This document shows, one piece after another, positions 1,900 through 9,726 of a stretch of 10,997 bases of DNA. Position numbers and translations under genes: made by a program. The number at the start of each line of letters is the position of its first letter. Positions within the stretch are counted from its first letter, which is position 1. The notes under the pieces are model-generated. The model did not search any database, had not been told where the DNA came from, and saw nothing but the letters and a program-made list of their open reading frames with translations. Source of the DNA: a virus; UHGV virus genome UHGV-0044850; one strand, written 5' to 3'.

Positions 1900-2576
1900 C
1901 GCCATTGCTCCCCAAATACAAAACTAATTTCAGCCAGTGCCTCGTCCATTTTTTCGATGAACTCCGGCACCATCTCGTCAAAACTCGCCATGTACTTTTC
2001 ATTCCGCTCAATCACGACATAATGCAGGCCTTCACGCTTCATGCGCGGGTCATAGTTGGCAAAGTACCAGGCATCTTTTCGCGTCACCCACATGCTGTAC
2101 TGCACCTGGGCCATGTAAGCCGATTTTATTGCCTCGAAACCACCGAGCCGGAATTTCATGAAATCCCGGGAGGTAAACGGGCATTTCAGTTCAAGGCCGT
2201 TGCCGTCACTGCATAAACCATCGGGAGAGCAGGCGGTGCGCATACTTTCGTCGCGATAGATGATCGGGGATTCAGTAATATTCACGCCGGAAGTGAATTC
2301 AAACAGGGTTCTGGCGTCGTTCTCGTACTGTTTTCCCCAGGCCAGCGCCTTAGCATTAACTTCCGGAGCCACACCGGTGCAAACCTCAGCCAGCAGGGTG
2401 TGGAAGTAGGACATTTTCATGTCAGGCCACTTCTTTCCTGAGCGGGGCTTTGCTATCACGTTGTGAACTTCTGAAGCGGTGATGACGCCGAGCCGTAATT
2501 TGTGCCATGCATCATCCCCCTGTTCGACAGCTCTCACGTCGATCCCGGTACGCTGCAGGATAATGTCCGGTATCAT
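1896..2576 (-). CDS. exo: lambda-type 5'-3' exonuclease (Red alpha, YqaJ-type)
   Basis: 226-aa ORF ([40 protein letters not shown]...FVFGEQWR), essentially lambda Exo from memory with a few substitutions. Its stop overlaps the bet start. Confidence 0.95.
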
Positions 2577-3358
2577 GCTGCCACCTTCTGCTCAGTGGCT
2601 TTCTGTTTCAGGAATCCAAGAGCTTTCACTGCTTCGGCCTGTGTCAGTTCTGACGATGCGCGAATGTCGCGGCGAAATATCTGGGAACAGAGCGGCAATA
2701 AGTCGTCATCCCATGTTTTATCCAGGGCGATCAGCAGAGTGTTAATCTCCTGCATGGTTTCATCGTTAACCGGAGTGATGTCGCGTTCCGGCTGACGTTC
2801 TGCAGTGTATGCAGTATTTTCGACAATGCGCTCGGCTTCATCCTTGTCATAGATACCAGCAAATCCGAAGGCCAGACGGGCACACTGAATCATGGCTTTA
2901 TGCCGTAACATCCGTTTGGGATGCGACTGCCACGGCCCCGTGATTTCTCTGCCTTCGCGAGTTTTGAATGGTTCGCGGCGGCATTCATCCATCCATTCGG
3001 TAACGCAGATCGGATGATTGCGGTCTTTGCGGTAAATCCGGCATGTACATGATTCATTGTCCTGCTCAAAGTCCATACCATCAAACTGCTGGTTTTCATT
3101 GATGATGCGGGACCAGCCATCAACGCCCACCACCGGAACAATGCCGTTCTGCTTATCAGGGAAGGCGTAAATTTCTTTCGTCCACGGATTAAGGCCGTAC
3201 TGGTTGGCGACGATCAACAATGCGATGAACTGCGCATCGCTGGCATCACCTTTAAATGCCGTCTGGCGAAGAGTGGTGATCAGTTCCTGTGGGTCGACAG
3301 AATCCATGCCGACACGTTCAGCCAGCTTCCCTGCCAGCGTTGCGAGTGCTGTACTCAT
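2573..3358 (-). CDS. bet: single-strand annealing protein Bet (Red beta)
   Basis: 261-aa ORF ([72 protein letters not shown]...) matching lambda Bet. ATG start; 4-nt overlap with exo. Confidence 0.95.
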
Positions 3359-3363
3359 CCGTT

Positions 3364-3660
3364 TTATACCTCTGAATCAATATCAGCCTGATGGTGAGCA
3401 ATGGTTTCAACTATGTACCGGATGTGTTCTGCCATGCGCTCCTGAAACTCAACATCGTCATCAAACGCACGGGTAATGGCTTTTTTGCTGGCCCCGTGGC
3501 GTTGCAAATGATCGATGCATAGCGATTCAAACAGGTGCTGGGGCAGGCCTTTTTCCATGTCGTCTGCCAGTTCTGCCTCTTTCTCTTCACGGGCGATCTG
3601 CTGGTAGTGACGCGCCCAGCTCTGAGCCTCAAGACGATCCTGAATGTAATAAGCGTTCAT
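3364..3660 (-). CDS. gam: Gam, short form (GamS), RecBCD inhibitor
   Basis: 98-aa ORF ([60 protein letters not shown]...IDSEV) matching lambda GamS. AGGAG RBS about 8 nt upstream of the ATG at 3660. The upstream ATG at 3781 that would give the long form is out of frame here (see findings). Confidence 0.9.
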
Positions 3661-3735
3661 GGCTGAACTCCTGAAAATGGCTGTGAAAATATCGCCCGCG
3701 AAATGCCAGGCTGATTAGGAAAACAGGAAAGGGGG

Positions 3736-3879
3736 TTAGTGAATGCTTTTGCTTGATCTCAGTTTCAGTATTAATATCCATTTTTTATAAGCGTCGACGG
3801 CCTCACGAAACATCTTTTCATCGCCAATAAAAGTGGCGATAGTGAATTTAGTCTGGATAGCCATAATTGTTTGATCCAT
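3736..3879 (-). CDS. kil: Kil (host cell-division inhibitor, FtsZ-targeting)
   Basis: 47-aa reading frame ([47 protein letters not shown]) inside the longer 3736..4005 track ORF. ATG at 3879 with AGGAG about 9 nt upstream. Overlaps the cIII 3' end by 32 nt as in lambda. Confidence 0.85.
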
Positions 3880-4012
3880 TTTTTGGGACTCCTGGCTGAT
3901 TAAGTATGTCGATAAGGCGTTTCCATCCGTCACGTAATTTACGGGTGATTCGTTCAAGTAAAGATTCGGAAGGGCAGCCAGCAACAGGCCACCCTGCAAT
4001 GGCATATTGCAT
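3848..4012 (-). CDS. cIII: cIII (FtsH/HflB protease inhibitor, stabilises cII)
   Basis: Hand translation of the minus strand gives [54 protein letters not shown] (54 aa), matching lambda cIII. ATG at 4012 with GGAG about 8 nt upstream. Below the ORF-track size cutoff. Confidence 0.9.
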   Translation of the reverse strand: MQYAIAGWPVAGCPSESLLERITRKLRDGWKRLIDILNQPGVPKNGSNNYGYPD

Positions 4013-4084: not shown

Positions 4085-4453
4085 TCAGGCGGCCTTGATA
4101 GTCATATCATCTGAATCAAATATTCCTGATGTATCGATATCGGTAATTCTTATTCCTTCACTACCATCCATTGGAGGCCATCCTTCCTGACCATTTCCAT
4201 CATTCCAGTCGAACTCACACACAACACCATATGCATTTAAGTCGCTTGAAATTGCTATAAGCAGAGCATGTTGCGCCAGCATGATTAATACAGCATTTAA
4301 TACAGAGCCGTGTTTATTGAGTCGGTATTCAGAGTCTGACCAGAAATTATTAATCTGGTGAAGTTTTTCCTCTGTCATTACGTCATGGTCAATTTCAATT
4401 TCTATTGATGCTTTCCAGTCGTAATCAATGATGTATTTTTTGATGTTTGACAT
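4085..4453 (-). CDS. ea10: Ea10-like early protein (function unknown)
   Basis: 122-aa ORF with ATG start. Same length as lambda ea10 and the same 72-nt spacing from cIII. I do not recall the lambda Ea10 sequence, so identity is by position and size only. Confidence 0.6.
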   Translation of the reverse strand: MSNIKKYIIDYDWKASIEIEIDHDVMTEEKLHQINNFWSDSEYRLNKHGSVLNAVLIMLAQHALLIAISSDLNAYGVVCEFDWNDGNGQEGWPPMDGSEGIRITDIDTSGIFDSDDMTIKAA

Positions 4454-4609
4454 CTATTCATATCCTCATAGATAAAAAATCGCCCTCACACTGGAGGGCA
4501 AAGAAGATTTCCAATAATCAGAACAAGTCGGCTCCTGTTTAGTTACGAGCGACATTGCTCCGTGTATTCACTCGTTGGAATGAATACACAGTGCAGTGTT
4601 TATTCTGTT

Positions 4610-5787
<1,178 letters not shown>

Positions 5788-5823
5788 TATGGCACCTGTG
5801 TTGTTCTGAGGTGAGCATATCAC

Positions 5824-5859
5824 CTCTGTTCAGGTGGCCAAATTCAGTAAACCACTTCA
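5824..5859. repeat. IS911 terminal inverted repeat (end proximal to orfA)
   Basis: Reverse complement begins TGAAGTGG and has the shared core TGGCCACC. IS3-family 5'-TG...CA-3' termini. Confidence 0.7.
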
Positions 5860-5888: not shown

Positions 5889-6089
5889 TCAGGCAGCTTT
5901 GTTGTTCTGTTTACCAAGTTCTCTGGCAATCATTGCCGTCGTTCGTATTGCCCATTTATCGACATATTTCCCATCTTCCATTACAGGAAACATTTCTTCA
6001 GGCTTAACCATGCATTCCGATTGCAGCTTGCATCCATTGCATCGTTTGAATTGTCCACACCATTGATTTGTATCAATAGTCGTAGTCAT
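5889..6089 (-). CDS. ral: Ral (restriction alleviation, modulates type I restriction-modification)
   Basis: 66-aa ORF MTTTIDTNQWCGQFKRCNGCKLQSECMVKPEEMFPVMEDGKYVDKWAIRTTAMIARELGKQNNKAA, near-identical to lambda Ral from memory. Confidence 0.9.
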   Translation of the reverse strand: MTTTIDTNQWCGQFKRCNGCKLQSECMVKPEEMFPVMEDGKYVDKWAIRTTAMIARELGKQNNKAA

Positions 6090-6302: not shown

Positions 6303-6884
6303 ATGAACAACTCATGGTGGCAGGAACTAATGCATTTTTTCCTGCAAGGAATGACACTTAAACAGTTGATTCATATGCTAATCATCCTGATCATATTGAT
6401 TATTGTTATGCCGGTAAGCGTAAAAGAATGGATAAACCTGCATAGTCCAGAAATCCTTCCTCATTACTGGATGTATTACATCCTGTTGTTTTGCGTTAGC
6501 TATGTGCTTAACGGCGTTGTTAATTCCGCTTATCACGCTGTGACTGAAAGAATTGAGGTATTCGCTGCTCAGAAGCGCAAATCTAAAGAAGAAAAATATG
6601 TGCAAGATTTGTTTGATTCGTTAACTCTTGGAGAAAGAGCGTATTTGGCATTCGCTGTAGCCGCTAATAACCAGCTACAAACGGAAAAGGGCGCTCATGA
6701 ATCAATTTCATTGCTCAAAAAAGGACTCCTCGTTCGAAGGCCTCCTGCTGTTGGATATCCTGATACCGACCGTTTCGTTATCCCTGAAAGCTATAGACAT
6801 GAGTGCTACATTAGGTTTGCCGGGAAGGCAGACAGCCTTATGGATGAACTTATCGCTCAGGATAAGCATGGCAAAAACAAGTAA
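6303..6884 (+). CDS. sieB: SieB-like superinfection exclusion membrane protein
   Basis: 193-aa ORF on the opposite strand to the pL operon. Two strongly hydrophobic segments (LIHMLIILIILIIVMPV and YWMYYILLFCVSYVLNGVV). Position between ral/orf28 and N matches lambda sieB; sequence identity to lambda SieB is recalled only loosely. Confidence 0.65.
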   Translation: MNNSWWQELMHFFLQGMTLKQLIHMLIILIILIIVMPVSVKEWINLHSPEILPHYWMYYILLFCVSYVLNGVVNSAYHAVTERIEVFAAQKRKSKEEKYVQDLFDSLTLGERAYLAFAVAANNQLQTEKGAHESISLLKKGLLVRRPPAVGYPDTDRFVIPESYRHECYIRFAGKADSLMDELIAQDKHGKNK

Positions 6885-6900
6885 TTAGCAAATGAATTTA

Positions 6901-7173
6901 TCATCTCGCCGTCAGTTGTTTTGATTTCCGGTAGCCTGCCGCGTAAAGAGCTACGTTCGGAAGACAAGTTGAACCTTCATATTTTCTGGTCAACGTTGTC
7001 AGAGTTATCACTTCTGCTCTCATTGCTGGTTTGAGCTTGCATTGCAAGACCACTCGTGAAGGGGTTGGCCTGTGTAGCTTGTCGGAGCTGATCGCCTCCT
7101 GACTTTGCAGATTTGCGCGACGAGCTCTACGGCGAGAAGCTGCGGTGCCTTTAAATTCTGTTTTTCTGGACAT
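6901..7173 (-). CDS. N: N-like transcription antiterminator (non-lambda specificity)
   Basis: 90 aa from the ATG at 7173, which has GGGAGGAA RBS about 5 nt upstream; the track ORF begins at an upstream ATG (7245) with no RBS. Arginine-rich motif near the N-terminus (GTAASRRRARRANLQ). Sits immediately downstream of the nutL-like element. Sequence differs from lambda N. Confidence 0.7.
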   Translation of the reverse strand: MSRKTEFKGTAASRRRARRANLQSQEAISSDKLHRPTPSRVVLQCKLKPAMRAEVITLTTLTRKYEGSTCLPNVALYAAGYRKSKQLTAR

Positions 7174-7271
7174 GGATTCCTCCCGAATAAACTTTGGCGA
7201 TGCAATCTCGAAGCTCCTCCTGAGACGGTTGCTTCGGCATTGCATCCCACAGCTTATGTGGTTGGGTGATC

Positions 7272-7609: not shown

Positions 7610-8362
7610 TTATGCTGCAAGTCTCTTAACCCAAGTCTCTCTTTTGGAGAATGGTAGAACTTGGCTTGATTCATGGAAGAGTAAGGAGAGTTGTTGCATT
7701 TGATCACCAATTGCTTCGCTGTCTATAACAACAAATCTGTTGTTATACTCCTCACTTGAAGCTTTAAGATCAATTAGTTTCCCAAGCAATGAGTAAGCAC
7801 TATTCCAGCTTCCTCCGTGTTTCACGCTTGATGTAAAAACGTATTTAGGTATGTCGGTTTTTATTGTTACAGGGACGGTAATTTGATGTCCACTCAAGCC
7901 ATATACGTTTTCACGAAGAGAAAGTGCGTCTCTAAGCTCTGTGTGATATAGATAATCAATAACCATACTTTCAAACTTTTCAGCTTGAACTGGCTGATAC
8001 CAGTCTAACGACAAAGTTGATGCGAGTATACCAGCTCTAATTATGTTCGATGTAATCGCACCGACATCCTTTTCTGTTGCCCAAGCAATGATTTCTCCTC
8101 GAGCATTGAGTTCTGCGCCTTCTTTAAGCAGTAATTGTCGTATCTCATCAAGTCGTTTTTTGGTAAGCGAGATCCCTCTTGCCTCCATATTCATTAAGGC
8201 ATCGCATCTGTCACTAACTAAATACCTACCATTGACTTCACGGATAAAGGCACCGACATGCTCTCCATCATCACAGTAAGTGAATGGACTGATAATTCTC
8301 AAGGTCTTGCCTATTGGATGGCATTCGAAACCTAGTTGTGAGATCACTGTTGAGCACATCAT
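7610..8362 (-). CDS. hypothetical protein, second gene of cassette in the rex position (250 aa)
   Basis: ATG at 8362 overlaps the TGA stop of the upstream gene (ATGA). No transmembrane segment obvious. No similarity to RexA/RexB or other proteins I can recall. AT-rich coding sequence. Confidence 0.7.
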   Translation of the reverse strand: MMCSTVISQLGFECHPIGKTLRIISPFTYCDDGEHVGAFIREVNGRYLVSDRCDALMNMEARGISLTKKRLDEIRQLLLKEGAELNARGEIIAWATEKDVGAITSNIIRAGILASTLSLDWYQPVQAEKFESMVIDYLYHTELRDALSLRENVYGLSGHQITVPVTIKTDIPKYVFTSSVKHGGSWNSAYSLLGKLIDLKASSEEYNNRFVVIDSEAIGDQMQQLSLLFHESSQVLPFSKRETWVKRLAA

Positions 8363-8916
8363 ATTCCAAACCCCATTTGCCCCGACTCATCTTCAAGCGG
8401 TAAAGGTATTCTCCCAGAGTAAGTTATGTTCAGATGTTTACAGAAGTAATTCCAATACCCTACCAGGTCATCTGGGTTTATGTCATCTTCGATTGGAAAC
8501 GCTATTCTATCACTATAGTATCCAGCTTCTTCATAGTATACATGGTAGTGAGCACCGTAAATGATATCTTGGTACTTCGGATGATCGACCTTGTAACTAT
8601 TCGTGTGTTTGTCAAAGTGATAGGTATCTACCGCGAAAACCCTCTTGTTATGATAGAAAGCAATAATATTTATTTTAGGGTAAGAAATCGGGTCATCAGG
8701 TTCTGAATCCTGATCTGGTTTCCATTTCAGTTCAAACTTTAGCCCTTGTATAGGTATACAATCCTCATCCAAGGGGATGATATGGGCTTGTAGCCACATA
8801 TCAGAGCGACTTGGTTTCTGTTTCCATTTAACGCCAGAAAAGTTAACTATTTTTTTACAATAAAGTACTTTATCAACTTCTACTTGGCTTGGCTGATAAT
8901 CATCTATTTTTGCCAA
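8359..8916 (-). CDS. hypothetical protein, first gene of cassette in the rex position (185 aa if TTG start)
   Basis: The frame opens right after a TAA stop. The first start-like codon is TTG at 8916 with AGGGCGG 7-13 nt upstream; the first in-frame ATG (8799) has no RBS. Begins 39 nt downstream of the cI stop on the same strand. His/Tyr/Asp-rich (HYHVYYEEAGYY). Confidence 0.6.
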   Translation of the reverse strand: MAKIDDYQPSQVEVDKVLYCKKIVNFSGVKWKQKPSRSDMWLQAHIIPLDEDCIPIQGLKFELKWKPDQDSEPDDPISYPKINIIAFYHNKRVFAVDTYHFDKHTNSYKVDHPKYQDIIYGAHYHVYYEEAGYYSDRIAFPIEDDINPDDLVGYWNYFCKHLNITYSGRIPLPLEDESGQMGFGI

Positions 8917-8955: not shown

Positions 8956-9609
8956 TCACCCAAACGTCTCTTCAGGCCATTGGCTGGCGATAACTTTCCC
9001 CACAACGGAACAACTCTCATTGCATGGGATCATTGGGTATTGTGGGTTTAGTGGCTGTAGAAACACCTGACCGCTATCCCTGATCAGTTTCTTGAAGGTA
9101 AATTCATCACCACCAAGTCTGGCTATGCAGAAATCGCCGGGCTCAACAGCTTGCTCAGGGTCAACCAGAATTAACATCCCGTCAGGAAAGCTGGGTTTGG
9201 AACCTGTTGGTGCGGTCATTGAGTTACCTTCAACCTCAAGCCAGAATGCAGAGTCACTGGCTTTTTTGGTTGTGCTTACCAATCTCTCCGCATCGCCTTT
9301 GGTAAAGGTTCTGAGTTCTGGAGAGAACATCCCAGCCTGAACATGAGAAAAAACAGGGTACTCATATTGTTTTTTAACTGGGGCCGATGAGTATTCGCCA
9401 ACAGGTGAAAATGTCCCGTCGTGGTTGAATGATATGTTATCAATACCAAGGTATTTAAACACCACACCAATATCACTAAGAGATGGATGACGAGATCCGC
9501 GCAACCAGTGTCCAATCCCACCCTGCGTCATACCTAGCTCTTCGGCTAACTTCTCTTGAGTTATGCCGAGCTCTTTCATTCTGGATCTAGCCAGTTCATA
9601 CCATTTCAT
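8956..9609 (-). CDS. cI: CI-type prophage repressor: HTH N-terminal domain plus lambda-type LexA-like (S24) C-terminal domain
   Basis: C-terminal about 130 aa ([28 protein letters not shown]...[12 protein letters not shown]) match lambda cI, including the VQAG cleavage region and the GNSM serine and FKK lysine motifs. N-terminal domain ([38 protein letters not shown]) is a different helix-turn-helix. Start taken as the ATG at 9609 with AAGGA 7 nt upstream; in-frame ATGs at 9615 and 9651 and a TTG at 9657 are alternatives. Confidence 0.85.
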
Positions 9610-9726
9610 TTTCATGTCCTTATTATTACGCTCTGTACTGGAACCATCCATGCACAATGTGTATTTTTACTTGTATTCGCAAAGTACATATTGTATTTTT
9701 TTATTCGTGTTTACTATGGAGGGCAT
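9610..9726. promoter_or_regulatory. oR region with divergent pR/pRM (operator sites not resolved)
   Basis: 117-bp AT-rich intergenic region between divergent cI and cro. Candidate pR: -35 TTGTAT (9671..9676), 17-nt spacer, -10 TATTTT (9694..9699). The spacer contains AAAGTACATAT (9681..9691), the same 11-mer as in the pL spacer. Repeated TGTATT motifs. Confidence 0.45.

Follow-up and report, generated by a model that had tools for sequence, protein, structure and literature searches.

The gam gene analysed here is very probably the ordinary Red-operon gam of a lambdoid prophage, in a common haplotype that encodes only the short form of Gam (GamS). The allele is expected to be fully Gam-positive, and the presence or absence of the 40-codon extension that makes the long form (GamL) would be neutral. 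Full activity is expected because GamS is both the conserved unit of the family and the form for which binding to RecBCD and blockage of its DNA entry site have been shown. The window, by which we mean the whole stretch of DNA that was analysed (10,997 nt of UHGV virus genome UHGV-0044850), is the early-left arm of a lambdoid prophage (Table 1). The kil-gam spacer, one base longer than that of lambda, places the ATG inside kil out of frame with GamS. In the explanation proposed here, Gam would be made solely as the 98-residue GamS, from an internal ATG that has its own Shine-Dalgarno sequence, and neutral length changes in short runs of T and C would decide whether the 40-codon extension is present or absent.

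Table 1. Features of the window discussed in the text
Feature	Position	Strand	Remarks
exo	1896-2576	minus	
bet	2573-3358	minus	
gam, short form only (GamS, 98 aa)	3364..3660	minus	RecBCD inhibitor family; ORF and PF06064
Remnant ORF of the 'GamL' ATG	3629..3781	minus	50 codons, out of frame with GamS
Spacer from kil stop to GamS ATG, 75 nt	3661..3735	minus	read by lambda as GamL codons 16-40; behaves as non-coding
GamS Shine-Dalgarno AGGAG	3668..3672	minus	7 nt before ATG; same as that of lambda
Polymorphic site	3674..3679	minus	T4 run 3677-3674 (T3 in lambda) and C at 3679 (T in lambda); from lambda alignment
TAA in GamS frame	3715..3717	minus	19 codons before GamS ATG; shuts off any N-terminal extension
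C5 run	3731..3735	minus	directly after kil stop; another hot spot for indels in relatives (119-nt spacing with C4)
kil, 47 aa	3736..3879	minus	Pfam PF06301, E 3e-19; stop TAA 3738-3736
cIII	3848-4012		
ea10-like gene (DUF2528)	4085-4453		
IS3-family element	about 4607-5859	minus	orfA 5485-5823, orfB 4640-5458
ral	5889-6089		
sieB	6303-6884		
N	6901-7245	minus	PF25694, E 1e-32
Two genes in rexAB position	8359-8916, 7610-8362	minus	
cI-like repressor	8956-9657		

On the minus strand, the ATG inside kil (3781-3779) lies 121 nt upstream of the GamS ATG (3660-3658), a distance that is not a multiple of three. The same ATG-to-ATG spacing in lambda (NC_001416) is 120 nt, and the frame is kept in the 138-aa gam CDS (32816..33232), which overlaps kil. 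An alignment of 537 nt contains a single length difference, where lambda reads AGCTA-TTTCAGGAG and the window reads AGCCATTTTCAGGAG. The extra T belongs to the run at 3677-3674 and is linked to a T-to-C change, relative to lambda, at 3679. Both distances had been given in the original prediction. The first is borne out by the minus-strand sequence, and the second proved right in the alignment with the lambda reference, which had been named there as the check.

The ORF opened at 3781 has 50 codons and stops at 3629. Its translation is identical to the predicted 50 residues followed by a stop, and it has no Pfam match. Upstream of the GamS ATG, the GamS frame continues for 18 sense codons up to a TAA (3717-3715), and no ATG, GTG or TTG was found among these 18 codons. 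GamL needs an ATG 40 codons before that of GamS, in frame and with no stop between the two, and the window lacks such an arrangement. Since the frame from 3781 stops at 50 codons and the GamS frame, closed by the TAA, has no in-frame start upstream, the 98-aa Gam is the sole encoded form, and the earlier claim that only this form can be made holds. The 'GamL' ATG itself arises from the kil codons AAA-TGG (Lys-Trp), so that its conservation is explained by kil coding. No Shine-Dalgarno sequence was found before this ATG (upstream context GCTTATAAAAAATG).

The locus belongs to the lambda Gam family on all sequence criteria that were tested. GamS matches Pfam PF06064 (Gam) with residues 1-98 on positions 1-98 of 98 (E 1.4e-63, 211.7 bits with a curated cut-off of 25), and the 138-aa protein of lambda matches the same family at residues 41-138 only. 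It also aligns end to end and without gaps with the PDB entries 5mbv_A and 2uuz_A (E about 3.5e-60); the solved crystal and cryo-EM structures (2uuz, 5mbv) are of the GamS form. Four of the 98 residues differ from lambda GamS, and all four changes are conservative (L22I, S61A, M84I, and V92A). The order of the Red module, kil, gam, bet, and exo, is kept, with all genes on the minus strand. Gam is a DNA mimic that binds as a dimer at the DNA entry site of RecBCD and shields linear phage DNA. The activity of GamS and its complex with RecBCD have been published; GamS alone is active in vivo and binds RecBCD, and both the structure and the in vivo quinolone-potentiation data come from this form (PMC5218532). 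GamL and GamS were described as two isoforms of lambda Gam, and both are active when expressed from a plasmid (PMC5218532). The 'GamL' of a 2025 Genome Research paper is an unrelated, Gam-like protein of phi80. From its 96% identity to lambda GamS, the GamS of the window would be expected to inhibit the nuclease/helicase RecBCD, and a fully functional Gam would be produced from the internal start.

Across the family, the GamL extension is not conserved as coding sequence. In a large protein collection, nearly all Gam clusters at 72-90% identity (from E. coli, Salmonella, Citrobacter, and Raoultella) have 97-99 aa, and forms of 138 aa appear only among clusters of at least 96% identity. Diverged Gam DNA was represented by six loci from three such proteins. 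Stops in frame with Gam are present 2-30 codons upstream of its ATG in all six loci, and the 40-codon extension was found in none of them. TTCAGGAGTTCAGCC-ATG is exactly kept in four of the six, although the sequence farther upstream diverges, and the motif is present even in Gam genes whose proteins have only 73-75% identity. A different module arrangement is seen in some E. coli prophages (loci L127 and L128), in which a Gam 81% identical to that of the window directly follows a RecE-type (Exonuc_VIII) gene and is itself followed by bet and exo-like genes. In these two loci gam overlaps the end of the RecE-type gene, leaving no kil and no spacer, and the protein has the same length as GamS.

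The 121-nt form is a fixed haplotype shared by numerous phages and E. coli genomes rather than an error of sequencing, and the allele of the window is one of the two major natural haplotypes of lambdoid gam. The region is carried by 180 GenBank phage records. An 80-nt query across the site (window 3636-3715) is found exactly in 68 of them, published Stx and environmental lambdoid phages among these (including Min27, VT1-Sakai, Stx2 phage I, P27, ST2-8624, ev017, and PhiR phages). The lambda 79-mer is exact in 78 of the same records, many of which are lambda laboratory derivatives. The longer spacing is present in 30 of 60 rows sampled at even intervals from the ranked 180 records. About 3,120 of 5,426 complete E. 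coli genomes carry this gam region, at roughly 3,900 places in all, and exact matches were found in 1373 genome records for the window 80-mer and in 635 for the lambda 79-mer. The original prediction had implied an unusual departure from a lambda 'norm'. This implication does not stand, because the haplotype is about as common as that of lambda in phage records and roughly twice as common in complete E. coli genomes, where the RefSeq Gam is 98 aa. Many phage records and RefSeq genomes already contain the allele, correctly annotated as 98 aa; a literature search for an earlier published notice of the frameshift in Stx phages gave nothing specific.

A pattern scan of IMG/VR that allowed any spacing between both ATGs yielded at least 120 loci. 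Of the 123 copies fetched (120 IMG/VR loci and three GenBank phages), 67 have a spacing of 120 nt, 50 of 121 nt, and 6 of 119 nt, and the long Gam is out of frame in 56 (about 45%). These proportions are approximate, since the IMG/VR sample comprises the first 120 loci matched and the scan demanded an exact ATGGATATTAAT anchor. All 50 copies with 121-nt spacing have CCATTTT. The 120-nt class has CTATTT in 65 of its 67 copies, and in the other two, L038 and L056, CCATTTT is combined with the loss of one C from the C run. The extra T is thus accompanied by the T-to-C substitution two bases away in all 52 fetched carriers.

As judged from its pattern of variation, the 75-nt spacer evolves like non-coding DNA. 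Among 76 distinct haplotypes, no indel upstream of GamS falls outside this spacer and its junction with the kil stop codon. The affected sites are the T run, the C run that follows the stop and, in the alignment of two haplotypes, the last base of the stop itself, beside the C run. The deletion in the C run is found on more than one background, and in L038 and L056 it is joined with the T insertion, which gives a spacing of 120 nt with a shifted middle. The density of variable sites is highest in the spacer (0.30 per nt), followed by GamS (0.20) and kil (0.12-0.13). Counted over the three codon positions, variable sites number 6, 7, and 9 in the spacer (GamL frame) and 16, 15, and 29 in GamS. 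The usual third-position excess is present in GamS and absent from the spacer, a result that is supporting rather than decisive because it rests on 22 variable sites. GamS is kept as an intact 98-codon frame in 49 of 49 copies of the 121-nt class, 6 of 6 of the 119-nt class, and 57 of 59 of the 120-nt class. Since the extension sits in a spacer that evolves in this manner, its presence or absence would reflect neutral indels.

In the 121-nt haplotype, kil and GamS share a reading frame (219 nt apart), with two TAA stops between them. The kil stop is lost (TAA to TAC) in several relatives, such as the IMG/VR loci L010, L015, L018, L011, and L079, and the Kil of stop-lost relatives is 54 aa long and ends in YPPFLFS or YPPSLFS. 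Rare kil-gam fusion proteins of 171 aa are predicted from raw assemblies (P0002, P0009, and P0010, each with 2-10 member sequences). The point at which the kil frame passes into the GamL frame differs between them, and they are most likely homopolymer errors or sporadic indels.

The original prediction also held that the change, falling in the ribosome-binding region, could alter GamS translation. This suggestion finds no support. AGGAG (3672-3668) and the 7-nt spacer that follows are the same as those of lambda. The extra T is located 2-5 nt 5' of the Shine-Dalgarno sequence and is predicted to be unpaired, and its removal in silico shifts the opening energy from the Shine-Dalgarno sequence to the AUG by at most 0.3 kcal/mol. 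About 105 nt around the site are predicted to fold into a weak structure that is the same for both alleles, and no significant RNA structure was detected at the site (z -0.6 and -1.4). The linked C/T substitution shifts the same opening energy by 0 to 1.3 kcal/mol, varying with the segment that is folded. A small quantitative effect of the linked substitution on GamS yield is possible, but nothing suggests one.

Several other readings of the one-base difference have to be weighed. Errors of sequencing and assembly are common in T runs such as this one, and the rare 171-aa kil-gam fusions in raw assemblies look like errors of this kind, so the extra T might be an artefact that conceals the in-frame 120 nt of lambda. 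However, records with the exact 80-mer (1373 from E. coli and 68 from phages) come from many laboratories and platforms, and the T-to-C change goes with the extra T in every fetched carrier. The number of independent records and the accompanying substitution exclude such an error, and we put its chance at next to nil. Decay of gam in a defective prophage, with the frameshift as the first step of pseudogenisation, is very unlikely. Damage to the prophage is conceivable in view of the IS3-family insertion that shares the pL operon with gam, but the ORFs of GamS, kil, bet, and exo and the Shine-Dalgarno sequence are all intact. Moreover, published genomes recorded as free phages have the identical haplotype, and every examined copy of the 121-nt class has a whole GamS. 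A programmed +1 frameshift at the U run (CAU UUU CAG), through which ribosomes starting at the ATG at 3781 would still produce the long Gam, is also hardly credible. The tRNA-Phe could re-pair from UUU to UUC and restore the GamS frame, but neither a slow codon nor a stop codon occupies the A site, and no SD-like stimulator is present upstream at a prfB-type distance, as AGGAG comes after the run. A Shine-Dalgarno sequence is also missing before the initiating ATG, and the existence of a 119-nt class, like the double shift in L038 and L056, shows that the frame is not maintained.

The haplotype might instead tune the output of GamS, through the change adjacent to the Shine-Dalgarno sequence or through the loss of read-through ribosomes, with the alleles differing quantitatively in RecBCD inhibition. 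The site is 2-7 nt 5' of the Shine-Dalgarno sequence, for some folded segments the predicted opening energy moves by as much as 1.3 kcal/mol with the linked substitution, and in lambda, any ribosomes translating GamL would traverse the initiation region of GamS. Such tuning is nevertheless improbable. The Shine-Dalgarno sequence, spacer, and start codon are identical between the alleles, the extra T alone has no predicted effect (at most 0.3 kcal/mol), and the region lacks significant structure. In addition, the upstream ATG has no Shine-Dalgarno sequence, and both alleles are at high frequency, as neutral variants would be. The T3/T4 and C4/C5/C6 runs could also be seen as switching a long Gam isoform with a function of its own on and off in a heritable manner. 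If so, lambdoid phage populations would be polymorphic for GamL on purpose, but we give this reading only a slim chance. A role of the extension specific to lambda is possible, since two isoforms are described and GamL is active from a plasmid (PMC5218532). The comparative data argue rather that lambda GamL would be a lineage-specific, unselected reading frame and not a conserved isoform, which is better supported than the on/off switch. With the extension neutral, as preferred here, GamS would be expressed normally and the loss of GamL would be without phenotype.

For the locus of the window, the consequences are small, as its gam is standard and intact. What bears on annotation and on the reading of the lambda literature is that the conserved product, by the comparative data, is the 98-aa GamS with its own Shine-Dalgarno sequence. 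Calls of a 'frameshifted gam' or a split gam (e.g., the record of Stx2 phage 86) are artefacts of using the long CDS of lambda as the template.

 The IS3-family element is ISEc52-like and 99.8-99.9% identical to copies in E. coli ATCC 25922. It separates the ea10-like DUF2528 gene from ral and lies inside the pL operon, upstream of cIII-kil-gam-bet-exo and in the same orientation. A polar effect of the element on gam expression is possible, and its insertion is a more plausible influence on Gam output in this prophage than the one-base difference. The pair of genes in the rexAB position, immediately downstream of the cI-like repressor (7610-8362 and 8359-8916), matches the PADLOC candidate defence system PDC-M24, with component B at full length (E 4.7e-10) and component A at E 4.8e-4. 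In Pfam, the pair matches DUF1828 and, weakly and below the cut-off, DUF6978. It is probably a prophage-encoded exclusion or defence pair. With an upstream ATG as its start, the N ORF would be 114 aa long. Its start codon is uncertain because the Pfam match begins at residue 23 and the PGAP annotation in the ATCC 25922 relative is 90 aa.

Among known systems, the gam of lambda (GamL 138 aa, GamS 98 aa) resembles that of the window in its position between kil and bet, in the Shine-Dalgarno sequence and ATG of GamS, and in the overlap of the upstream ATG with kil. They differ in spacing: the 120 nt of lambda give a 138-codon frame, whereas with the 121 nt of the window GamS alone is encoded. The window belongs to a group of Stx and lambdoid phages, including Stx2 phage 86, BP-4795, Min27, VT1-Sakai, Stx2 phage I, ev017, and PhiR57_1, which have the identical haplotype over 3636-3715 and are 98.7-99.8% identical to the window over 537 nt. 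Gam is annotated as 98 aa in this group, and the record of Stx2 phage 86 lists a 50-aa 'gam', the equivalent of the remnant ORF, followed by a 98-aa 'gam'. Of the genomic relatives found, the E. coli ATCC 25922 prophage is the nearest (99.7% identity), and PGAP annotates its Gam as 98 aa. Its IS positions differ from that of the window, with two copies elsewhere, one in a DUF1382 gene and one on the opposite side of ral. Within PF06064, the RefSeq 'host-nuclease inhibitor Gam family protein', the Gam of the window is a full-length match, and the members from Salmonella, Citrobacter, and Raoultella are 97-99 aa long.
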